From the sequence record NC_100371.1: a stretch of DNA of 64,000 bases; one strand, written 5' to 3'. Below the pieces are notes generated by a model. That model did no database searches. It had not been told where the DNA came from and saw only the letters and a list, made by a program, of their open reading frames with translations. A program made the translations under genes and the position numbers. This stretch comes from a phage. Position 1 is the first letter of the stretch, and each line of letters begins with the position of its first letter. Positions 43,742 to 55,824 of this stretch are shown here, piece by piece.

Positions 43742-44654
43742 ATAGTCTATCTGCTCCCATTCGAATTGCGTCGTTTATGTTCGGGCAAGGTCGCTAGTCT
43801 TGCCCCGCCATTTTCAGGCAGCTGCATGTCTCCATGCAGACCAGACTATATCTTATGAATGTGCAAATACTCTGCTGCTCTAAGAATGGTTTCCTCATCC
43901 TCTTGGAAGAAACCTAAAGCTCTGTTGCATTTATCACAAAGCAACCCTCTTACAGCACCAGTTTTATGGTCATGATCAACACAAAAGAAATCTCTGTACC
44001 CTTGCGTCCTATACTCATCAAGAGATATTCTACAAATGGCACACTTATGATCTTGATCTGAGAGTAAGCGATAGTATTCATCTTTTGTTATGTGAAATTT
44101 CTTCTCAATCTGATAAAACTTTTCACACATCTTACACCTGTTCGTAACCAGATACACTTTACCATAGTCACGTTTTGTGTAAAAACTATCAGCAAGCATA
44201 CTTTCATGACAAGATTTACATTCAAAAAGCTCACCTTTCTTCAGTAAGTCTTGAATAAAAGATGCTGCATCATCTCTCTTAACCATATTTTTGTTTCTAC
44301 GAGATCCATTCTTCCTGTAGTACATATAGCATTCCTTGCATGTACCGGAGTATCCATCCTTGCTCTTAGATGATAAAAAGAAATCATCAAGAGGTAGAAC
44401 TCTTTGGCAATCCATACATTTTTTAGTATTACACATTCACCCTCCCGTTTCGAATCGCTTGATTCTACGTCTTTCGACTAGTCGTTGAACGTTCATCCTT
44501 TCGGATGCTTCGCTGCGGATTATCTAAATTAACACACTGTTACCATACCTTCGATCTCTCTTCGAAGCCTCTATCATGTTACCATGACAGGTTGGTGGTG
44601 TCAATAATAAAGATTTCCCCGCAATTAGGGAGGTTTTACGAGAGCTACAAATTA
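43742..44654 (-). mobile_element. group I intron (td-like) in terL, carrying HNH homing endonuclease ORF
   Basis: Minus strand begins UAAUUUGU... right after exon codon GGU (in-frame UAA); contains P-like AAUUGCGGGGAAA, Q-like AAUCCGCAGC, R-like GUUCAACGACUAGUC and S-like AAGAUAUAGUCU in canonical order. Confidence 0.7.
43846..44436 (-). CDS. HNH homing endonuclease (intron-encoded, 196 aa)
   Basis: Own GGGAGGG RBS; several CxxC zinc-finger pairs and HNH/EndoVII-type motif CVDHDHKTGAVRGLLCDKCNRALG; stop codon UAG lies inside the S element. Confidence 0.7.
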   Translation of the reverse strand: MCNTKKCMDCQRVLPLDDFFLSSKSKDGYSGTCKECYMYYRKNGSRRNKNMVKRDDAASFIQDLLKKGELFECKSCHESMLADSFYTKRDYGKVYLVTNRCKMCEKFYQIEKKFHITKDEYYRLLSDQDHKCAICRISLDEYRTQGYRDFFCVDHDHKTGAVRGLLCDKCNRALGFFQEDEETILRAAEYLHIHKI

Positions 44655-45080
44655 ACCCTCATCGAAGCAAACCATGGTGTACTCAAGTCCTTGATGGTTA
44701 AGCTTATCTTGGACATACTCCATGTGGCAGTATTTTACAACAGCTCCTTTTTTGCTCCTGTCCCACTTGCCAGTGCTCGGATCAAACCGTGGAAAAATAA
44801 ACTTATGATCCTTCTCTCTGAACTTTGGTTTAATGTTTTCAGGCAGATCACTGTAAATAGCTACTGCTTTAGGCCATAGCCCACCCTCACCTTCCAACTG
44901 TGGAGTTGTTCTTCGGAACATAACCACAGAGCTGTGTGGGTCATCAATAATTTTAAGCGGCATCAACTGCAGGAGGAACGACTTACCTGACCCAGCCGCA
45001 CCACCAATGACAAGAATGTCTGCATCGTTTTCCAGGATCATCTTCTGCTTTTCAGAACACGGTCCGTAAATCTTAGACAT
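44652..45080 (-). CDS. terL: terminase large subunit, exon 1 (N-terminal ATPase part)
   Basis: Walker A ILVIGGAAGSGKSF and Walker B MVCFDEG; ORF ends at TAA directly after DEG, which I read as the first intron codon. Confidence 0.7.
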   Translation of the reverse strand: MSKIYGPCSEKQKMILENDADILVIGGAAGSGKSFLLQLMPLKIIDDPHSSVVMFRRTTPQLEGEGGLWPKAVAIYSDLPENIKPKFREKDHKFIFPRFDPSTGKWDRSKKGAVVKYCHMEYVQDKLNHQGLEYTMVCFDEG

Positions 45081-46184: not shown

Positions 46185-46261
46185 TGGTCTCCACGGAGTG
46201 ATTCGAACACTCGACCTCCTGATCCCAAATCAGGCGCTCTACCAAGCTGAGCTACGCGGAG
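46185..46261 (-). tRNA. tRNA-Pro (anticodon UGG)
   Basis: Manual fold: acceptor CUCCGCG/CGUGGAG, anticodon arm CCUGA-UUUGGGA-UCAGG, T-arm GAGUG-UUCGAAU-CACUC, encoded CCA. Confidence 0.75.
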
Positions 46262-46272
46262 TATTTATTATT

Positions 46273-46347
46273 TGGTGGCCCTGGGTGGAATTGAACCACC
46301 GTCTGGCGATTATGAGTCGCTTGCTTGAACCTTCCAGCTACAGGGCC
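46273..46347 (-). tRNA. tRNA-Met (anticodon CAU; could be Ile-lysidine type)
   Basis: Manual fold: acceptor GGCCCUG/CAGGGCC, anticodon loop CUCAUAA, T-arm GGUGG-UUCAAUU-CCACC, CCA. Confidence 0.7.
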
Positions 46348-46348
46348 A

Positions 46349-46424
46349 TGGTGCTGATGGCAGGACTTGAACCTGCAACCTATTGATTACAAATCAATTG
46401 CACTGCCAATTGTGCTACATCAGC
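46349..46424 (-). tRNA. tRNA-Thr (anticodon UGU)
   Basis: Manual fold: acceptor GCUGAUG/CAUCAGC, anticodon arm AUUGA-UUUGUAA-UCAAU, T-loop UUCAAGU, CCA. Confidence 0.7.
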
Positions 46425-46430
46425 AAAAGG

Positions 46431-46527
46431 TGCTAGGTGATGGAATCGAACCATCTATGTATTCAACGACTACCTCGTCTATTTTCAGGATTAAAAATCC
46501 TCGCCCTTGCCAAAGGGCTTACCTAGC
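46431..46527 (-). tRNA. atypical tRNA-like gene (97 nt; Lys-like UUUUUAA loop; identity unresolved)
   Basis: Perfect 7-bp acceptor GCUAGGU/ACCUAGC, D-arm GCCC-UUUGGCAA-GGGC, T-arm GAUGG-UUCGAUU-CCAUC, but 46 nt between D- and T-arms; no encoded CCA. Confidence 0.4.
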
Positions 46528-46625
46528 TCAGCATGTTGACCATGTTGCTAGTCGGCGATGACGACTGTAACATTTGATAATCCGGTTCTGCTTCCGGCTT
46601 TCGCTTAATTACAAGGTCAACAATA

Positions 46626-46716
46626 TGGCAGAGGATAATGGAATCGAACCATCATCGAGTCATCCTCAACGGGACGGTTTTCAAGACCGCTTGAGCACCA
46701 TTGCTCCCTACCCTCT
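46626..46716 (-). tRNA. tRNA-Ser (anticodon UGA), class II
   Basis: Manual fold: acceptor AGAGGGU/AUCCUCU, anticodon arm GCGGU-CUUGAAA-ACCGU, long variable arm, T-loop UUCGAUU, CCA. Confidence 0.7.
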
Positions 46717-46830
46717 TTTATAAACAATACTGATAATGACACTGATTTTCGAGCAGTTAGTGACTAGTATAAACGACGATAAATATCAATGCCATTATCT
46801 GTATGATTTATGCATTTAAAAATATAAATT

Positions 46831-46918
46831 TGGTGGTGAGTGATGGAGTCGAACCACCCGAATCGCAATGATAACAGATTTACAGTCTGCCCCGCTACCC
46901 CTACGGAATTAACTCACC
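46831..46918 (-). tRNA. tRNA-Tyr (anticodon GUA), class II
   Basis: Manual fold: acceptor GGUGAGU/ACUCACC, anticodon arm GCAGA-CUGUAAA-UCUGU, long variable arm, T-loop UUCGACU, CCA. Confidence 0.7.
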
Positions 46919-47048
46919 TAAATACTAATATTTAAATTCTTTTTAAAATAGCTAGTGTTCTAACCACTAACTATGAGGTATCGGTAAAGTGGTTACCGCC
47001 ACTTGCCGAAGATTTACTCTGCTAAAGTAAGCTACATTAAAAAGAACT

Positions 47049-47123
47049 TGGCACCCCGTACTGGACTCGAACCAGTGTCAACGGCTTAGAAGGCCGCTGC
47101 TTTATCCACTAAGCTAACAGGGC
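47049..47123 (-). tRNA. tRNA-Arg (anticodon UCU)
   Basis: Manual fold: acceptor GCCCUGU/ACGGGGU (two G-U pairs), anticodon arm GCGGC-CUUCUAA-GCCGU, T-arm ACUGG-UUCGAGU-CCAGU, CCA. Confidence 0.65.
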
Positions 47124-48421: not shown

Positions 48422-49000
48422 TCAACGTTCGTAGTAAATCTTATTCAACATTACCTCATCGTTTGCAGAAAGGATATCAAGATATGCATCACCAAATCTG
48501 CCTGCAACAACCTCTGCATGATACATCACTTCGTTAACATCGTCAAGAGTGATAACCGGATGACCATATCTTTCTGAATATTGTCTCAGTGTGCGATGTA
48601 ACGAGTCGTCATCATATGCAGACTTTTTAATATCACAAACACGACGAATGGCCTTGATGTCGAAAAAACCTGTGCGATACCACCCAAGAAAAAAGTTCCG
48701 TGTAGTGTCAACATCTACATCAATACCATTAAGAACCTTATCTACAAGATAGCTGTCATCCTTTGGACTAGCGTCCTTAGTGCGAATGTAGTTGCCATCT
48801 TTTCCAGGTGATAGCTCCTTCTCATCACCAACCTGCATGCCATCATTTGGCGGTGTTAGCCACTTATCAGGATGCTTACGATCACGAGCGTTAGAATGAT
48901 TACGCTGGAAACCTGGCTTCCACTTGAAAGTTTTCTCCATCTGTTCTTCATTCTGATAACGTTTTGCAATCTTTTCACTGGCATCTTTGCGTGAACTCAT
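48422..49000 (-). CDS. hypothetical protein (192 aa)
   Basis: ORF with start overlapping upstream ORF stop; no motif recognised. Confidence 0.35.
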   Translation of the reverse strand: MSSRKDASEKIAKRYQNEEQMEKTFKWKPGFQRNHSNARDRKHPDKWLTPPNDGMQVGDEKELSPGKDGNYIRTKDASPKDDSYLVDKVLNGIDVDVDTTRNFFLGWYRTGFFDIKAIRRVCDIKKSAYDDDSLHRTLRQYSERYGHPVITLDDVNEVMYHAEVVAGRFGDAYLDILSANDEVMLNKIYYER

Positions 49001-49140
49001 AGCAGACTCCTCTTCAAGTTATAGAAAAACTCACTGTATCGCTTTGTAACGAGCTTTTCTATCAAACTGGTGCGATTGCCTTACTTGGTATAGTTTATAT
49101 AGCTGTGGAGCGATTTAGGGGCCTTCTTGTCAGTTTCCAC

Positions 49141-49375
49141 ACATAAACTTTATCCGAACTCGCGCGGGAGGCTCTCAACCGACTCCTTCCGGCGCTGGCA
49201 AGCTTTCGTCGGTGGTCCACATTAGTGCTCGGCCTTTGGCCTGCGCTATCGCTTCGCTCCCACACATGTTAACAGTCCTGCATGTATGCACTTCTGTTAT
49301 TGTGTGCACTATGGAGGCCCGGCATCTCGCCCCTCGTAGGCGAGTGCCAATGAAGGGCCGACACTACCCATAATA
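49141..49375. other. GC-rich hairpin-dense island in intergenic region
   Basis: Composition shift versus AT-rich flanks; multiple local dyads (CCGAC...GUCGG, GGCC-UUU-GGCC, CUCGCC-CCUCGUA-GGCGAG); no ORF of 60 aa or more. Confidence 0.3.
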
Positions 49376-49505
49376 AGTAATAAATTTAAAACATGGTACT
49401 TAGGATCTAGTATATTCTACATAAGTTAAGTATATGTACTTTAGTACCATAAGTACTAGATCTTTTATTTTTTATTATTTAGTTATTTTAGTTATATTCT
49501 TTATG

Positions 49506-49587
49506 TGTCCGTATCACGGACAGTTAGTGTCCGTATTACGGGCAGATGTGTCCGCGTGACGGACAGTAGTGTCCGTATCACGGACAG
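49506..49587. repeat. four tandem 21-22 bp iteron/operator-like repeats with internal dyad symmetry
   Basis: TGTCCGTATCACGGACAG at 49506 and 49570 (identical), variants at 49528 (TGTCCGTATTACGGGCAG) and 49549 (TGTCCGCGTGACGGACAG); period 22/21/21 bp; AT-rich tract with inverted repeat AGATCTAGTA at 49402-49462 just upstream. Confidence 0.6.
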
Positions 49588-49661
49588 TTACTAACCTCTG
49601 TTCCAGAGTGAACATAAAACATACAAATCCTTATAGTACAGATGTTTAAGTTTTTACTGGT

Positions 49662-50012
49662 CTAACCAGTTGTTGACATTCGAATAACTTCTTCTGGTGG
49701 CAAAACTTTGGAAAATGTGCATCTTTTACCTCTCCCTTGTGTGGATATTTCAACCACTCCTGCACATTCTAAAGTTTTAACGCACGCTGCTGCTTTTGTT
49801 TTCTTTATCCCAACATCTGCTGCAATTTTCCTGGTGCTGGGTGTGAAGCGTGAATTTTCTCCAAGCTTATACCAGTTGTGCAGGTAGCAGTATACGATCT
49901 TGTCATATAAGTCAAGAACAATAACCTCCCCAGTTGTGCCATTCAAAACTTTTGACATAGACAGTATTTCAAGGGGGACTTTAAGATATAGCAGCTTATC
50001 CCCATCTTTCAT
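49662..50012 (-). CDS. helix-turn-helix DNA-binding protein (116 aa)
   Basis: Segment FTPSTRKIAADVGIKKTKAAACVKTLECAGVV resembles a winged-helix/HTH; adjacent to the repeat array. Confidence 0.4.
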   Translation of the reverse strand: MKDGDKLLYLKVPLEILSMSKVLNGTTGEVIVLDLYDKIVYCYLHNWYKLGENSRFTPSTRKIAADVGIKKTKAAACVKTLECAGVVEISTQGRGKRCTFSKVLPPEEVIRMSTTG

Positions 50013-50059
50013 ATCTCCTGATTCTCCTTGTGTGGCAATTTTCTTTAAAATAGCAGGGA

Positions 50060-50614
50060 TTACTCCCCGCTGTCAATAGCAAGACTCATTGCAATACGGT
50101 ATGCCTCTTCTAATGGTAAGAGTCTCCCCCACACATCCCAACCGACATCAAACTGCCTGCCAAACAACTGCTGTGTGGTTCCGTGAGCATGACCGAACAG
50201 TTGGACTGATCCGTGAGGCTTTCTGTTCCACTTTGCAAACTGGTAATGGCTCATACAGATCAAATTCTTGTTGTGGCGAAGCTCGTAATAATCTACAACC
50301 TCATGACCGAACTCTTTCATAATTCTGACAGTCGTCCTTGTGTCATGGTTACCACGAACAAGAATAATATGTCCGTTCAACATATTTAGAACATCTGGAA
50401 GCAATTTGTTGATATTCTTATCATTAGTGCACGCAATATCCCCCAAGTGAAACACAGTGTCTGCAGGTGACACAACAGAGTTCCACTTGGTGATGATTCC
50501 CGCATTCATACTGTCAAGATTGTGATCATACTGAGATCTGTGTTTTTGACATGAGTCGAACTCCATTACCCGCTGGTGGAGAAAGTGTGTGTCGCTTGTT
50601 ACAAAGTATTTCAT
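50060..50614 (-). CDS. calcineurin-like metallophosphoesterase (184 aa from ATG at 50614)
   Basis: Motifs SDTHF, GDI, GNHD, GHAHG; start with GAGGAA RBS; ORF-track start at 50719 would overlap the kinase. Confidence 0.6.
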   Translation of the reverse strand: MKYFVTSDTHFLHQRVMEFDSCQKHRSQYDHNLDSMNAGIITKWNSVVSPADTVFHLGDIACTNDKNINKLLPDVLNMLNGHIILVRGNHDTRTTVRIMKEFGHEVVDYYELRHNKNLICMSHYQFAKWNRKPHGSVQLFGHAHGTTQQLFGRQFDVGWDVWGRLLPLEEAYRIAMSLAIDSGE

Positions 50615-50621
50615 ACATTCC

Positions 50622-51032
50622 TCATTTAAGTTTAATGCAGTTTTTAAGCTGGCGTTCCATACGATCCACAACCCTGTCTGGAACATCATGAATGCTTTTA
50701 TTACCATGGCGGTTTTCAACCACGATCACGGTATAACTATATCCATGACTGATCGCCATGTCAATATATTCTTGCACATATTTTTCTTTTGTAAACGTAT
50801 TACTTACCACGATACGGTCGTAGCCCATACGCATCATATCTTCTACGTTATCTTTGCACCATTTTGCTGCAAGTGTTACTTTACTTGCATCCCAATTGTA
50901 ATTGCCGTCATCGTCGTACCAGAACATATCGTTCTCAAAATGTGGATACAGACCTTCTAAAGATAGCGCATTTGCCAGTGTTGATTTGCCAGACCCTGGT
51001 AGACCACGCACGATATATAGCATTTTAGACAT
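50622..51032 (-). CDS. P-loop polynucleotide-kinase-like kinase (137 aa from ATG at 51032)
   Basis: Walker A IVRGLPGSGKSTLA near N-terminus; GGAGAG RBS upstream of ATG at 51032. Confidence 0.5.
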   Translation of the reverse strand: MSKMLYIVRGLPGSGKSTLANALSLEGLYPHFENDMFWYDDDGNYNWDASKVTLAAKWCKDNVEDMMRMGYDRIVVSNTFTKEKYVQEYIDMAISHGYSYTVIVVENRHGNKSIHDVPDRVVDRMERQLKNCIKLK

Positions 51033-51150
51033 AGTAACTCTCCGTTTTAATTTTAATGATAGTATACCTAACTGTTTTGTTAATTTCAAGTGTTGACACC
51101 AGGTTATTTGTGTGGCAGAATAAAGGGACAAAATGACAAATGAGGAATGT

Positions 51151-52068
51151 ATGATGAAGTATTTTAATGCAGACGACCTGGTTGACAAAGGTCTTGTAAC
51201 CAGCAGATATTACCCAGATCTTGGATTAAAGATCTACAAATATGCCAGAAAAGTATTCTACAACAATTTATGGCATTTGTCTCCGCGTTTACTAGAGTGC
51301 CGAGGCATTGTTGTCGGTAATGAAGGAAATGTTGTGGCATGGCCCTTCACAAAAGTGTTTAATTTGGGAGAAAACTCCACCAACCTGCCTGACAATAAAC
51401 TTGTGACGGCGGTAGAGAAAAAGAACGGATTCCTTGGTGTGGTATCATCTCATAAAGGTGAACTATTGTTTTCAACAACCGGGTCTCTTGATTCTCCATA
51501 TTGTAACCTTGCAAAGGAAACCATCCAGGAGCAATGTGGTAATTTAGATCTTATCAAGAAGGTTATGGGCCATGAAAACATGACATTCATGTTTGAAATT
51601 TGTCACCCTTCAGATCCGCATATTGTTCAGGAAGATCATGGCGCATATTTGATAGGTTGCAGATATAATGATTCTGGAATAATGCTACCAGAAGCAGCTT
51701 TAGATGGGATTGCCAAATACCTTGGTGCAAAACGTCCTCACACTGTGCGTGAAATTCCGTTCAGCTATGCAAAAGAATTAGCTGCAGAAACAAGGGGTGA
51801 AGGGTATATGATCCGTAAGCCTTACTACCCTTATGACCTGCAACTAAAGATCAAGTCTCCCTACTATCTGGCACGGAAGGCCGTAATGAGGTGTAGAGCT
51901 TGGAAGATTTGGGATGATGATATCTTTAAACGTGTTGACGAAGAGTTTTACGGCATGGTAAACTTCATTCGTAGGAACTACACAGAAGATGTGTGGAATT
52001 GCCTCCTGGAGCAGGAACGCCGTGAGATACTTGACTGCTATTTCCACAACGAGGACTATATGCAATGA
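51151..52068 (+). CDS. RNA ligase-like nucleotidyltransferase
   Basis: Motif I-like VEKKNGFLG (KxNG as in Rnl1/tRNA-ligase type); GAGGAA RBS before ATG 51151; divergent from kinase/phosphatase pair. Confidence 0.5.
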   Translation: MMKYFNADDLVDKGLVTSRYYPDLGLKIYKYARKVFYNNLWHLSPRLLECRGIVVGNEGNVVAWPFTKVFNLGENSTNLPDNKLVTAVEKKNGFLGVVSSHKGELLFSTTGSLDSPYCNLAKETIQEQCGNLDLIKKVMGHENMTFMFEICHPSDPHIVQEDHGAYLIGCRYNDSGIMLPEAALDGIAKYLGAKRPHTVREIPFSYAKELAAETRGEGYMIRKPYYPYDLQLKIKSPYYLARKAVMRCRAWKIWDDDIFKRVDEEFYGMVNFIRRNYTEDVWNCLLEQERREILDCYFHNEDYMQ

Positions 52069-52415
52069 AGAAGTTGATTGTGTGGCTTGATGATTTTAGA
52101 GATCCGTCAGATTATGGACTACCAGACGCTCTGTGGCTGAAGAATTCTTCTGAGTTTATGGATTTTCTTAATGATAAGAGAAAGCTCTACAGACGCGTAT
52201 CTGAGTGGTATTTTGACAATGATCTAGGGGAAGTGCTTGAAGGGTACGACTGCTTCTCTGCGCTAGAGGAGAAACTTGTATTCGGAAAGCCACCACTTAT
52301 TGACAACGTGATTATTTTCGTGCATACTTCTAATCCATCGGCAGCTCGTAAATTTATGCTTGCTGCTGACTCATTCAAGAAGTTTGGAATAGAGATCAAA
52401 CAAAACATCTACTAA
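52065..52415 (+). CDS. hypothetical protein (116 aa), translationally coupled to RNA ligase
   Basis: ATGA start/stop overlap with RNA ligase gene; no motif recognised. Confidence 0.35.
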   Translation: MKKLIVWLDDFRDPSDYGLPDALWLKNSSEFMDFLNDKRKLYRRVSEWYFDNDLGEVLEGYDCFSALEEKLVFGKPPLIDNVIIFVHTSNPSAARKFMLAADSFKKFGIEIKQNIY

Positions 52416-52423
52416 GGACATTT

Positions 52424-53185
52424 ATGCGACGACTTATTGTTATTTCTGGTGCTGGCTTGAGCGCAGAATCTGGGATCCCAACTTTTCGTTCTGGTCAAAC
52501 TGCAATGTGGGAGAATTTCAGCATCGATGAGGTGTGTAACATCCACACCTTTGCCAAGAACTACTATAAGGTGCATGACTTTTACAATGCACGGCGTGTA
52601 GCTCTGGGCAGTGTTGATCCTAACCTTGCACATCTCCGGATCGCTGAGTGGTATTCACGTTGGTCTGGTCGTGTGATCAACCTGACAACCAATGTAGATG
52701 ATTTGCTGGAGCGTGCTGGTGTTAAACATGAAGATATCTTACATGTCCACGGGTATTTGCCTGAAATCACCTACGAAGATGCTGAAGGTAATGATGTAAT
52801 TAAAAATATCGGATACACGGAGGTAGATACAGGCAAGTATACTTGGGTTAAGCCCAATGTGGTGTTCTTCGGTGAGGTTGCTCCTAAGTATACAGACATG
52901 TATGACCTATTGACATCTCTTACCAGCAATGATATGGTGATCCTGGTGGGTTGTTCTAACACAGTTATTAATTTTAACTGGGAATTGTTTCCTGCTACTT
53001 GTAAAGGCACAAAACTACTGATTGTAAACAAGTATGATTCGCAGAGTGCAGATGGAAGCGGCATTTCACGTAGCGACCTTTATCAATATGAGGATCGCGG
53101 GATCCCGGTTTGGTTTAACGGGGCGGTTGATGCTTTCTCTGATAAAACATTCATTGAGACCGTAGAAAACTTTATGGAACTTTAA
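52424..53185 (+). CDS. Sir2 (sirtuin-fold) family protein lacking zinc-ribbon cysteines
   Basis: Motifs GAGLSAESGIPTFR, NLTTNVDDL, catalytic-type HG (LHVHGYL), VGCSNT; no CxxC pairs where the sirtuin Zn module would be. Confidence 0.6.
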   Translation: MRRLIVISGAGLSAESGIPTFRSGQTAMWENFSIDEVCNIHTFAKNYYKVHDFYNARRVALGSVDPNLAHLRIAEWYSRWSGRVINLTTNVDDLLERAGVKHEDILHVHGYLPEITYEDAEGNDVIKNIGYTEVDTGKYTWVKPNVVFFGEVAPKYTDMYDLLTSLTSNDMVILVGCSNTVINFNWELFPATCKGTKLLIVNKYDSQSADGSGISRSDLYQYEDRGIPVWFNGAVDAFSDKTFIETVENFMEL

Positions 53186-53198
53186 AAGGAGACCTTTA

Positions 53199-53912
53199 AT
53201 GCTGAATACCAAATTAATTGACAACCTGGAAAAACTGTCCCAGCCTGAAAACTACCTTTGGTCTGCCAACTGGGTGGAAAACTGGAACCGTGTAGCAGCT
53301 AAAGTGAAAAAATCATACACACCATTCGAACTTCAGCTGAGTTTCATTGAGGAAGAGTTCAATGAGGTTTTGGAAGAGTTGGAGAAAGGTGATGGTGGGG
53401 ATCATCTCCTAAAAGAGGCCTGCGATCTTCATGTTGTCACAAGTTATGCCGCTTATCTTGTTAACGATAACCATGAAAAGTGGTCAAACCTGTTTGATAA
53501 TCCGCGAGGTCTTAAGTTTAAGATCGGTGAATTTTATGATACACTGATCGCTGCGAAAAATACCTCTAAGCAAAGAGCGTCTGCTTACCGCTTAGCAGAG
53601 TTGTCAACAGCTTTGCTGTTCCAGCTTCGCGGTGATGTGTGCGGGATGATGCGGAAGGTTCTAAAATCTAATGACAGCAAGTTTGCACGCGTCAACCATC
53701 TGCGGTATTCACACGGTGCCAGTGCAGATATGCCTGCTGAACAACTCATCGAGTTGGAGATTAAAGATCTTGAGCGACGCTTTGATGGTCGCTATGAAGG
53801 TTTTGTTGCTAAAGAAGAATTCTACAACGGAAATAAAGTTATCATATTCCTTGACAGTAAAGGTAAGATTATGAAGCCTTCAAGCTTCAAAGATGTAACA
53901 GAATATATTTAA
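53199..53912 (+). CDS. MazG-like nucleotide pyrophosphohydrolase domain protein (237 aa)
   Basis: N-terminal EEEFNEVLEELEKGD...EACD matches the MazG/HisE E-x2-E...E-x2-D pattern; C-terminal half unassigned. Confidence 0.4.
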   Translation: MLNTKLIDNLEKLSQPENYLWSANWVENWNRVAAKVKKSYTPFELQLSFIEEEFNEVLEELEKGDGGDHLLKEACDLHVVTSYAAYLVNDNHEKWSNLFDNPRGLKFKIGEFYDTLIAAKNTSKQRASAYRLAELSTALLFQLRGDVCGMMRKVLKSNDSKFARVNHLRYSHGASADMPAEQLIELEIKDLERRFDGRYEGFVAKEEFYNGNKVIIFLDSKGKIMKPSSFKDVTEYI

Positions 53913-53918
53913 TAACAT

Positions 53919-53947
53919 AGCCGGGGCGATCCCGGCTTTACTTGTTT
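53919..53947 (+). terminator. intrinsic terminator (plus strand)
   Basis: AGCCGGG-GCGAU-CCCGGCU hairpin followed by UUACUUGUUU, 7 nt after stop of 53199..53912. Confidence 0.6.
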
Positions 53948-53976
53948 CGGAAAGTATGCAAGTGAGGTAGAAAGTT

Positions 53977-54285
53977 ATGTACAAGCACTCCAGAGATCTT
54001 GAAAACGATGATGTGTTTGGGGATCAGATGAAAGAATTGGTTAAACTTATAGGTAGGATAGAGGATAAGTTTGACACTAAGATCTACATCGACAGTAAAG
54101 TATTCAACCACAAAATATGGACAAATCTGTGTGTTGGACTGCATGGAGATAAAGATGTGGTAAATTTGGTTGTAATTAAGTTCATAGTGTGGCAGAATAA
54201 AACTATAAATTATTACGATCCACACCCACTTGTTTACCCGATAAAAGACCTATTAGAGAAGGAGGACTGCAATGCAGTTATTTAA
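53977..54285 (+). CDS. hypothetical protein (102 aa)
   Basis: ORF only. Confidence 0.3.
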   Translation: MYKHSRDLENDDVFGDQMKELVKLIGRIEDKFDTKIYIDSKVFNHKIWTNLCVGLHGDKDVVNLVVIKFIVWQNKTINYYDPHPLVYPIKDLLEKEDCNAVI

Positions 54286-54541
54286 TCTTGCTAAACCTGT
54301 AGAAGCACACCAGTTTGACGGAAGCTCTTCATCAGTATCTGATCTGCAACGGTGGATTGATACAGGTGTGTTTACACCGTCACCTGTTCGGACCAGAGAT
54401 ATTCTTCGCATGTGTGAGCTTGTCGAGCCGTTTGGTAACCTGGTCTTGTACCAAGGGGATTGGTTAGTTGACTTTATGGGAGACTGGTTGGTAATTAGCA
54501 AAGAAGAGATGTTTAAAATTTTTAAGGAAGAGGCTGAGTAA
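54272..54541 (+). CDS. hypothetical protein (89 aa)
   Basis: ORF with overlapping start/stop with neighbours. Confidence 0.3.
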   Translation: MQLFNLAKPVEAHQFDGSSSSVSDLQRWIDTGVFTPSPVRTRDILRMCELVEPFGNLVLYQGDWLVDFMGDWLVISKEEMFKIFKEEAE

Positions 54542-55824
54542 TGCATCAGATCAAAACAACACTGTACGCACTGAACAAAGATGGCAGCTACCAACAGTGG
54601 AAAGTATTCACGGATGGTGATAAGGTTATCGTAGAGTTTGGCAAGCTTGATGGTAAACTGCAATACAAAGAGACGATCTGCACACCTAAGAACGTGGGTC
54701 GTGCCAATGAAACTACAGCTGAGCAACAGGCTGAGCTGGAAGCGATCAGTAAGTGGGAAAAACAAGTCCGTCTGGGGTATGTTGAAAATATGGAAGATTG
54801 CGAGCAGGGTGTTGACCTTTTACCCATGTTGGTGCATGACTACCTGAAGCGTGGAAAGGCACTTAAATTACCTTGCTGGATTTTGCGTAAGTTAGATGGC
54901 CTTCGTCTACTGGTTGTTTTCCAAAACGGTGAGCCTAAATTTATTTCCCGTGGTAATAAGTCCTACCCTATTCAAGGAAAGCTTCTGGAGCAACTTCGTT
55001 CTTTCCACTTCACCACCGGGATTAAACAGCTCGACGGAGAGATCTATATTCATGGTCTGCCTCTGCAGAAAATAGTGTCTCTTGCTAAACGGTGGCGCAC
55101 ACAGGAAGAGATTCAGGCCGAGATCGATAAAGACTACGAGGCAGATAAAAAACGCCGTCATGCCGCAATTAAGGCAGGCTTATCAACATACAAAAACTTC
55201 AATAAGGTAGATATTCCTGTTGATGTTGAGCCTGTTCGTGATGATTTGCGTTACGGAGGGTACTGTAGCTATGACTTAGAGTATCATATTTTCGACATCC
55301 CTAGTGACAAGGTATGGTGGGATCCAGAAACAGAATCTGGACGATGCAAGGATCTTATGGATGCAGAAGATACCATTACCACCCTGATGCTTGACCATAT
55401 CAAGGTTGTTGACGCAGAGCTTGCGTACACAGTTGATCATTGCGAAGAATCTGTTGGTGTATTCATGTCCGAAGGATATGAAGGTACTATCATGCGTAAC
55501 TTCTGTGGTAAATATGAATATGGTCAGCGAACATCTGAAGCATTGAAATGGAAAAAGTTCAACGATGCTGAGGTGAAAGTTATTGACGTTGAGAAAGATA
55601 AGAATGATGAAGGTGTTCTTATCTGCGTTGACAAGGAAGGTATCGTTGTTAAAATGAAGATGAAAGGCACGCACGAGGAGCGTAGCTATGACAGGATGCA
55701 GGAAATGATCGGCAAGTTTATCACCTTCAAATATCAAGCAAGGACAGAAGACAACAACTACCAATTCCCTGTCGGCATCTGCGTCCGAAATGTTAACCCT
55801 GACACTTGGGAGGTTCTGGAATGA
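54541..55824 (+). CDS. ATP-dependent DNA ligase
   Basis: Motif I KLDGLR (KxDGxR) at about residue 118; size compatible with phage ATP ligases. Confidence 0.55.
   Translation: MHQIKTTLYALNKDGSYQQWKVFTDGDKVIVEFGKLDGKLQYKETICTPKNVGRANETTAEQQAELEAISKWEKQVRLGYVENMEDCEQGVDLLPMLVHDYLKRGKALKLPCWILRKLDGLRLLVVFQNGEPKFISRGNKSYPIQGKLLEQLRSFHFTTGIKQLDGEIYIHGLPLQKIVSLAKRWRTQEEIQAEIDKDYEADKKRRHAAIKAGLSTYKNFNKVDIPVDVEPVRDDLRYGGYCSYDLEYHIFDIPSDKVWWDPETESGRCKDLMDAEDTITTLMLDHIKVVDAELAYTVDHCEESVGVFMSEGYEGTIMRNFCGKYEYGQRTSEALKWKKFNDAEVKVIDVEKDKNDEGVLICVDKEGIVVKMKMKGTHEERSYDRMQEMIGKFITFKYQARTEDNNYQFPVGICVRNVNPDTWEVLE

Follow-up and report, generated by a model that had tools for sequence, protein, structure and literature searches.

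A predicted phage RNA heal-and-seal locus with separate kinase, phosphoesterase and ligase genes in an rV5-like Vequintavirus

The RNA repair systems most similar to the one considered here have been described in phage T4, in bacteria, and in fungi and plants. T4 combines the 5'-kinase and 3'-phosphate-removing protein Pnk with the sealing enzyme Rnl1, and T4 tRNA repair enzymes are reported to counteract the anticodon nuclease PrrC (PMC2610378). In bacterial Pnkp (Clostridium thermocellum Pnkp-Hen1; Pnkp1-Rnl-Hen1) the activities are held in one polypeptide, and the phosphatase domain of the C. thermocellum protein (CthPnkp) is reported to be a metallophosphoesterase with 2',3'-cyclic phosphodiesterase activity (PMC2190708). 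The fungal and plant counterpart is Trl1 with Tpt1, and in Mucorales a "sealing-only" Trl1 is accompanied by separate healing enzymes (PMC10946435). Closest of all is the sirtuin-centred phage RNA-repair neighbourhood of type 2 described by Iyer, Burroughs, Anantharaman and Aravind (Viruses 2022; PMC9503650, section 3.7.3), for which Escherichia phage V5 and Proteus phage Mydo are the prototypes. We analysed three genes at positions 50060-52068, and their surroundings, in a 64,000-nucleotide stretch of phage DNA from sequence record NC_100371.1 (the window, hereafter), and we consider it probable that this locus encodes an RNA heal-and-seal system of separate proteins whose likely substrate is tRNA and whose role would be in counter-defence.

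By nucleotide identity, the window comes from an rV5-like Vequintavirus closely related to rV5: for bases 50000-52100, 119 phage records were matched at 90-99% identity, and almost all are rV5-like Escherichia phages (Vequintavirinae, Vequintavirus). The three open reading frames (ORFs) lie where the original prediction had placed them, with the phosphoesterase and the kinase on the minus strand and the ligase divergent on the plus strand, and the motifs quoted in it (GLPGSGKST; SDTHF, GNHD and GHAHG; KxNG) are all present in the translations:

50060-50614, minus strand: calcineurin-type metallophosphoesterase (MPE), 184 amino acids (aa), assigned to the aq_1665 clade (Pfam, PHROGs, motifs, PDB profile search)
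50622-51032, minus strand: mini P-loop polynucleotide-kinase-like protein, 136 aa, predicted RNA 5'-OH kinase (MSKMLYIVRGLPGSGKST)
51154-52068, plus strand: Rnl1-family ATP-dependent RNA ligase, predicted sealing enzyme (PF09511, T4 Rnl1 profile match, AlphaFold (AF2) model, Foldseek)

Pfam matches for all three proteins exceed the gathering cut-offs. As in T4, the predicted activities are 5'-phosphorylation, 3'-phosphate removal and Rnl1-type sealing, and the ligase family and the kinase fold clade are shared too; in T4, however, the 3'-phosphatase is part of the kinase polypeptide, as a HAD domain, whereas here the candidate for that step is a separate MPE. The trio had been characterised as a split Pnkp-like kit, and this holds by analogy, in that three separate activities are predicted, and fails by clade, because the MPE of Pnkp is lambda-phosphatase-like and that of the phage is placed in the aq_1665 clade. 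Moreover, the single polypeptide of Pnkp is replaced here by three ORFs on two strands, the fusions found among phage relatives join only kinase and ligase, unlike the three-domain Pnkp, and the Pnkp ligase domain presumably belongs to a different family from the phage Rnl1-type ligase. Among the Pfam-scanned neighbours at 48422-55824 there was no Hen1-type methyltransferase, and the annotation of the near-identical phage YP-6 has none within 7 kb. As for the fungal and plant pathway, the ligase fold is as near to the ligase domain of Trl1 (Trl1-LIG) as to T4 Rnl1, an NAD+-using enzyme (the sirtuin, Sir2) is found in the phage operon where Tpt1 would act, and the division of healing and sealing among separate proteins recalls Mucorales, the best PDB profile match of the kinase being a Rhizopus kinase (9d8a). 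The phage system differs in having neither a 2H-type CPD domain nor a Tpt1/KptA homologue.

The strongest evidence that these genes form a heal-and-seal unit comes from their neighbourhoods in other viruses. The ligase alignment, scanned against IMG/VR, yielded 80 loci at 38-89% identity, or 81 with YP-6 (L001) included, and an independent scan with the kinase alignment yielded 79 new loci at 42-51% identity. Within 8 kb of the ligase, a kinase is found in 74 of the 81 loci and an MPE in 66. The full trio is present in 62 of the 80 IMG/VR loci, on a single strand in all but one of these (61 of 62) and with a median span of 2.6 kb; MPE-ligase-kinase is the commonest order, and the divergent layout is found only in the rV5 type. 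Because the three families co-occur within about 2.6 kb in 62/80 divergent viral loci, their clustering is far beyond chance. In 11 loci (L039, L040, L044-L047, L049, L050 and L053-L055), the kinase and the ligase are joined in a single ORF of about 420 aa (AAA_33 + RNA_lig_T4_1; for example, L045:604-1863). Among the kinase-selected loci, 56/79 have an MPE of the same clade, directly adjacent in 29 (hhalign probability 100 for one example), and 42/79 have an RNA ligase, with a more distant Rnl1-like gene in 25 and an Rnl2-like one (PF09414) in 19. An end-healing module should look like this, with one kinase-MPE cassette recurring beside two unrelated RNA ligase families. The module is found in 665 cultured-phage records and in hundreds of viral contigs. 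In synteny, in the kinase-ligase fusions and in the pairing of the cassette with two RNA ligase families, we thus find support for the proposed RNA repair kit as a prediction.

The ligase is 304-311 aa in length, with in-frame starts at 51133, 51151 and 51154, and contains the sequence EKKNGF. It matches PF09511 (RNA_lig_T4_1) at 8.2e-15 (55.7 bits against a cut-off of 28.3; model positions 1-227) and the RNA ligase family of PHROGs at 1.7e-65. A single-sequence phmmer search of the PDB retrieved nothing useful and a family profile was needed; the profile of a 33-member alignment found T4 Rnl1 (2c5u) at 2.2e-13 over T4 residues 51-249. Residues R50, K67, F69, K89, G92, E148, E216, G217, K232 and K234 are invariant in 33 homologues and stand opposite R54, K75, F77, K99, G102, E159, E227, G228, K240 and K242 of T4, which is 10 of the 11 residues that we take, from mutagenesis in the Shuman laboratory, to be the essential set of T4 Rnl1. 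Nucleotidyltransferase motifs I (the KxxG lysine nucleophile; K89/G92), III (E148), IV (E216-G217) and V (K232/K234) are intact. The AlphaFold model has a predicted local distance difference test (pLDDT) score of 92.8, and a Foldseek search of the PDB with this model ranked T4 Rnl1 (4e-13) and fungal Trl1-LIG (1.6e-12) first, then archaeal Rnl3, followed, at 1e-4 to 1e-6, by one viral DNA ligase and by Rnl5 and Rnl2, which scored about 1e-5 to 1e-6; LigD, DNA ligase 1 and a phage DNA ligase were weaker than 1e-3. On profile and modelled fold, the protein appears to belong with T4 Rnl1 and fungal Trl1-LIG and not with DNA ligases, and a reading of it as a DNA ligase or capping enzyme is not upheld.

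For the kinase, the matches are to AAA_33 in Pfam (2.8e-10) and to ATPase/polynucleotide kinase in PHROGs (phrog_505, 3.2e-10). Its single-sequence phmmer search of the PDB gave P-loop-level matches only. The family profile was led by the stand-alone Rhizopus kinase (9d8a, 2.7e-6), Pnkp1, PSTK, T4 Pnk and the CthPnkp kinase domain, with adenylate, shikimate and gluconate kinases ranking lower, and in a fold test the protein was closer to polynucleotide kinases than to nucleoside monophosphate, shikimate or gluconate kinases. On profile and fold it is placed with T4 Pnk, CthPnkp and Pnkp1 and not with the deoxynucleoside monophosphate (dNMP) or shikimate kinases, which were the other readings that a profile search might have returned. 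The P-loop GLPGSGKST and the general-base position D35, which aligns with the Asp of the Pnkp1 RDD motif, are invariant in 34 homologues, and so are N78-T79, E106-N107-R108-H109 and H115. The family consists of stand-alone kinases of about 130 aa and numbers at least 7,988 clusters (among 8,000 candidates scored).

The MPE, counted from the ATG of MKYFVTSDTHF, carries the motifs SDTHF, GD, GNHD, SHY and GHAHG and matches Metallophos_2 (1.7e-6) and Metallophos (4.1e-6) in Pfam and the phosphoesterase family phrog_547 in PHROGs (5e-51). The motifs of the calcineurin-like superfamily are complete (D8-x-H10, G58-D59, G88-N89-H90-D91, H123 and G141-H142-x-H144), and the dinuclear-metal ligands D8, H10, D59, N89, H123, H142 and H144, together with H90, are invariant in 39 homologues. 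In a profile search of the PDB the closest entry was 1xm7, the Aquifex hypothetical protein aq_1665 (3.5e-23), with GpdQ and YfcE as distant next matches. From its genomic context, we predict that the MPE is a 2',3'-cyclic phosphodiesterase and 3'(2')-phosphatase, that is, the 3'-end healing enzyme.

The identities of these genes by sequence and fold, their intact catalytic residues, the operon anatomy, and the conserved linkage and fusion are directly supported. From them we infer every enzymatic activity, the order of the steps, the tRNA substrate and the counter-defence role, as follows. The MPE would open and remove a 2',3'-cyclic or terminal 3'/2'-phosphate to leave a 3'-OH; the mini-kinase, apparently coupled to it in translation, would phosphorylate the 5'-OH; and the ligase, adenylated on Lys89 (Lys89-AMP), would join the 3'-OH to the 5'-PO4. 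The system most probably acts on tRNAs, of the host or encoded by the phage, that have been cut by bacterial defence nucleases, so that the repair would serve counter-defence. We propose this role because of the T4-PrrC precedent, because the two closest ligase folds are both tRNA ligases, because of the catalogue of tRNA-targeting defences, and because of a modest signal in the tRNA neighbourhood. Defences that cleave tRNA are reported to be widespread and to include PrrC, RloC, retron effectors, PARIS, Cas13a, bacterial Schlafens and Cas12a3. Documented escapes of phages from tRNA cleavage rely on replacement tRNAs or on T4 Pnk/Rnl1 as a repair pair.

The tRNA genes near the module had been counted as seven, about 3 kb away, and a count of seven was recovered by Rfam:

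46185-47123, minus strand: phage tRNA cluster, neighbour of the module (ARAGORN, 6 genes; Rfam, 7 tRNA-like matches)

The nearest end of the cluster lies 2.9 kb from the MPE. Its members are Pro-UGG, Met-CAU, Thr-UGU, an aberrant tRNA-like gene of 97-99 nt, Ser-UGA, a match found by Rfam only, and Arg-UCU. The tRNA-like gene (46429-46527, minus strand; Rfam 37.5 bits) is given a 4-base anticodon (atcc) by ARAGORN and may be aberrant, a pseudogene or intron-bearing, and the Rfam-only match is at 46834-46918 on the minus strand (39 bits). Some related loci (L060, L068, L070, L074 and L079) have suppressor-type tRNAs (anticodons CTA and TTA) near the repair genes, and the phages concerned may recode stop codons; two (L044 and L074) have tmRNA genes there.

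Downstream of the ligase we found three further genes that had been overlooked in the original prediction, which recognised the trio itself correctly. These genes, and the signals around them, are as follows:

50611-50627, minus strand: junction of kinase stop, Shine-Dalgarno (SD) sequence and MPE start (AAATGAGGAATGTATGA), one arm of a perfect 17-nt inverted repeat
51056-51121, no strand assigned: divergent promoter region, back-to-back sigma70-like (consensus scan, consensus matches only)
51138-51154, plus strand: ligase translation-initiation region, with the same sequence as the kinase-MPE junction and forming the other arm of the 17-nt inverted repeat
52065-52415, plus strand: cREC (cyclic-phosphate-processing receiver-like) protein, 116 aa (PF20274, 1.1e-13)
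52424-53185, plus strand: CobB/Sirt5-like sirtuin (Sir2), 253 aa (PF02146, 5.4e-28; E. coli CobB 1s5p, 2.9e-21)
53199-53912, plus strand: MazG-like nucleotide pyrophosphohydrolase, 237 aa (phrog_671, 5.4e-22)
53919-53937, plus strand: GC-rich hairpin with a T-rich tail, likely intrinsic terminator (sequence)

The cREC start overlaps the ligase stop (ATGA), and gaps of 8 nt and 13 nt separate cREC from Sir2 and Sir2 from MazG, so that ligase, cREC, Sir2 and MazG form one tight operon closed by the likely terminator at 53919-53937. The repair unit is therefore larger than the trio, with six genes within 50060-53912, and the three additions are co-operonic with the ligase (52065-53912). In cREC the Rec-like acidic residues D9, D10, D51 and D53, with S89 and K96, are invariant in 8 homologues; the sirtuin keeps GAG, N90-x-D92 and the catalytic H109 and is without Zn-ribbon cysteines, the stretch that holds them in CobB having none in the alignment; and the MazG-like protein, which has no Pfam match, has an invariant EExxE...D motif (E52, E53, E56 and D76). 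Among the 81 ligase loci, Sir2 is found in 12, cREC in 11 and MazG in 14, always alongside kinase and MPE, and on account of this minority distribution we treat the three as clade-specific accessories. They might provide an alternative NAD+-dependent clean-up of 2'-phosphates or cyclic phosphates, or dispose of by-products. A more specific version, in which the sirtuin is an NAD+-using RNA 2'-phosphotransferase that takes off a junction or terminal 2'-phosphate in analogy to Tpt1/KptA, cREC is a metal-independent cyclic phosphodiesterase and MazG clears ADP-ribose-phosphate, would give rV5-like phages a eukaryote-style ligation route of the tRNA-splicing type, assembled from unrelated folds and parallel to the T4/Pnkp-style route of the MPE. 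We think this distinctly unlikely; if true, the sirtuin fold would gain a new biochemical activity and cREC its first assigned function.

On the minus strand, 7 nt separate the kinase stop codon, which the SD sequence overlaps, from the MPE start (TGAGGAATGTATG; AAATGAGGAATGTATG), an arrangement consistent with translational coupling of kinase and MPE. The candidate promoters in the divergent region of about 100 bp are TTGAAA-17-TATACT on the minus strand and TTGACA-17-TG-CAGAAT on the plus strand. The inverted repeat AAATGAGGAATGTATGA, for which 0.06 matches are expected by chance and 2 were found, gives the MPE and the ligase the same initiation region, and both proteins begin with MKYF. We considered the repeat as a regulatory element and set this aside, as it is present in YP-6 and absent from the more diverged rV5-like contig L002; for the same reason, it is probably a recent duplication of the initiation region, or a recombination scar of the rearrangement that made the locus divergent.

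In the relatives, the trio often lies within 8 kb of genes for a NadV-like phosphoribosyltransferase (47 loci), a phosphoribosyl pyrophosphate synthetase (Prs; 40 loci), Macro (23 loci), an SLOG/DprA-like protein (14 loci) and an Rv2179c-like 3'-5' exoribonuclease (19 loci). These genes form an island of NAD salvage and RNA-end processing (for example, L003:1640-4199, L013:13921-15361 and L044:7808-8386, from the set L003-L081), and a search of the 64-kb window for NadV, Prs, Macro, SLOG and exoribonuclease genes found none.

Several points weigh against a tRNA-repair system with a counter-defence role. The literature searched yielded no experimental work on a Vequintavirus RNA ligase, on RNA repair in this group or on any component of the locus. 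Opposite T4 K119 the ligase has an invariant Thr, part of STTG; the protein has 304 aa where T4 Rnl1 has 374, and in the model its C-terminal helical region spans only some 65 aa, compared with about 120 aa in T4, so that T4-like tRNA specificity cannot be assumed. The kinase is a minimal version that is without equivalents of two of the residues (R38, D85 and R122/R126) which we take, again from Shuman-laboratory mutagenesis, to bind the substrate phosphate in T4 Pnk: mapped by motif and not by superposition on T4, W/F stands in place of R38, and N78 (in SNTF) in place of D85. It has a lid arginine, R108 in the invariant ENRHG, and an H115-x-VP motif, the comparison with R122/R126 being one of motifs. 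Because of the substitutions at R38 and D85, the kinase would represent a distinct sub-clade of polynucleotide kinases. The profile search of the PDB with the MPE retrieved no Pnkp phosphatase or lambda phosphatase chain at E<=0.1, so that the MPE appears to resemble the Pnkp phosphatase by superfamily and functional analogy and not as an orthologue, and the aq_1665 clade in which we place it is without a characterised member. In the 11 loci with kinase-ligase fusions, which are environmental viral contigs, neither an MPE nor any other recognisable phosphatase was found nearby. Of 42 related loci, only 17 have tRNA genes within 8 kb of the module, and common descent links many of these loci. 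Finally, the Toprim effectors AriB and OLD are reported as metal-dependent nucleases in tRNA-targeting defences, and nucleases of this type would leave ends that need no healing.

Some of these points would be accommodated if the locus were an RNA repair kit that is not specific for tRNA and acted on mRNA, rRNA or any RNA that toxin RNases had nicked, or in phage RNA processing. The C-terminal region is short by comparison with the tRNA-specificity domain of T4 Rnl1, the tRNA neighbourhood is limited to the 17/42 loci just mentioned, and the kinase-MPE cassette also partners Rnl2-like nick-sealing ligases. The best-studied precedent, T4 Pnk/Rnl1 against PrrC, nevertheless works on tRNA, the closest ligase folds are two tRNA ligases, and tRNA is reported to be the target of many recently described defences; we regard a broader substrate range as possible, if on balance unlikely. 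A different chemistry is implied by the fungal or plant-type route with a sirtuin, as proposed by Iyer et al. (PMC9503650). Here cREC would open the cyclic phosphate to 2'-PO4/3'-OH, the kinase would phosphorylate the 5' end, the ligase would seal and leave a junction 2'-PO4, and the sirtuin would remove this with NAD+ in the manner of KptA/Tpt1, with MazG, cREC or MPE processing the ADP-ribose cyclic phosphate; such a route could coexist with that of the MPE. Beyond being a prediction already in print, it draws on the tight operon of ligase, cREC, Sir2 and MazG, on a ligase fold as close to fungal Trl1-LIG as to T4 Rnl1, and on the invariance of the Sir2 catalytic residues and the cREC acidic residues. 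It has to contend with the rarity of the genes that define it (12, 11 and 14 of 81 loci, for Sir2, cREC and MazG) and with the presence of MPE and kinase at every Sir2 locus; Sir2 also occurs without cREC (L007, L009 and L016) and cREC without Sir2 (L004 and L005). Since Sir2 is found in only 12/81 loci, most phages of this ligase family manage without it, and no sirtuin is known to act on an RNA 2'-phosphate. We rate this route as unlikely.

Two further readings would remove the trio from RNA repair altogether. The MPE, cREC, MazG and Sir2 might chiefly destroy immune signals derived from nucleotides or NAD, such as cyclic nucleotides, signals of the cyclic ADP-ribose (cADPR) type or 2',3'-cyclic nucleoside monophosphates (2',3'-cNMPs), the linkage with the ligase being incidental or regulatory. 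The NadV, Prs, Macro and SLOG-like genes near the trio in relatives, at the frequencies given above, and the phosphodiesterases GpdQ and YfcE among the relatives of the MPE, would suit such a function; the coupled adjacency of kinase and MPE, the kinase-ligase fusions and the two families of RNA ligase partner tie kinase and MPE to RNA ends, and the NAD-salvage genes are all absent from the window, which leaves this reading improbable. In DNA metabolism, the trio could consist of a kinase for dNMPs or nucleosides, a nuclease like Mre11/SbcD, and either a DNA ligase or a capping enzyme, as might be supposed from proteins of the generic P-loop, MPE and nucleotidyltransferase superfamilies and from the ATP-dependent DNA ligase found within 8 kb in 35/81 loci. 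We reject this as extremely improbable on three grounds: DNA ligases scored weaker than about 1e-5 in Foldseek, and mostly weaker than 1e-3, compared with about 1e-12 for RNA ligases; the phage encodes its own, separate ATP-dependent DNA ligase at 54541-55824; and an MPE of 184 aa is too short for the extra domains of an Mre11/SbcD nuclease. RNA healing and sealing, most probably of tRNA, is the reading that we favour.

We emphasise that the locus was already known as a computational prediction and that its genes are annotated in GenBank; because the neighbourhood is described by Iyer et al. and the annotations exist, the window gives rise to no new concept. The gene set of the type 2 sirtuin-centred neighbourhood is complete at 50060-53912, with sirtuin, T4-like tRNA ligase, cREC, nucleotide kinase, MazG and calcineurin-like phosphoesterase, and the locus is the same (that of an rV5 relative). 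The earlier account, which like ours is purely computational, centres on the sirtuin and calls the phosphoesterase "occasional", whereas in our sets kinase and MPE are near-constant (62/80 and 56/79) and Sir2, cREC and MazG are a minority (11-14/81); cREC was defined and tied to RNA ligases by the same group in 2021 (PMC7824862). What is new here is that the conserved core consists of kinase, MPE and ligase rather than the sirtuin, that kinase-ligase fusions exist, and that the kinase-MPE pair also partners Rnl2-like ligases. The cassette differs from T4 in its set of proteins (mini-kinase, aq_1665-type MPE and short Rnl1), and, if the prediction is right, RNA repair would be a counter-defence far commoner than the T4 paradigm suggests, with functions assigned to the orphan kinase family of about 130 aa and to the aq_1665 MPE clade. 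There is nothing here to surprise the specialist, but the system is widespread and is an attractive experimental target.

The matching GenBank records name the kinase "AAA ATPase" or "3'-phosphatase, 5'-polynucleotide kinase", the MPE "phosphoesterase/phosphohydrolase", and the ligase "RNA ligase (1 and tail attachment protein)". We do not accept the tail attachment (tail-fibre attachment) label, which we regard as a name transferred from T4 gp63, because the ligase scores 38.7 bits against the T4 RnlA equivalog TIGR02308 (cut-off 242.25) and because its C-terminal region is short. Some 18-23 of the GenBank records (MG065644-MG065677; hits H12, H13, H20, H21, H24 and H26) are named "Campylobacter phage", with Campylobacter jejuni as host, and are 97-99.7% identical to the E. 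coli rV5-like locus. Identity this high across hosts so distant suggests that the hosts are mislabelled or that the isolates were contaminated by coliphages.

A helix-turn-helix (HTH) gene at 49662-50012, downstream of the MPE, was considered as a further member of the module and left out, because it is kept with the module in 1/81 loci. Between it and a conserved gene at 48422-49000 (phrog_12226) lie about 660 bp (49000-49660) without a convincing ORF, for which the sole match in an Rfam scan, rli43 at 24.6 bits against a gathering score of 100, is meaningless. In one of the environmental phage contigs with a kinase-ligase fusion, a gene some 6 kb away from the fusion (L054:15133-16245, minus strand) specifies a protein with an adenylate/guanylate cyclase catalytic domain (PF00211, 7.2e-20). 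Elsewhere in the window, a group I intron-like RNA at 44363-44664 (RF00028, 42.5 bits, under the gathering score of 50; E 3.4e-8) adjoins a Cys-rich HNH-like ORF (43846-44436), with an ORF resembling the N-terminal part of the large terminase (44652-45080) just upstream; this region (43846-45080, minus strand) looks like an intron with a homing endonuclease that interrupts terL.

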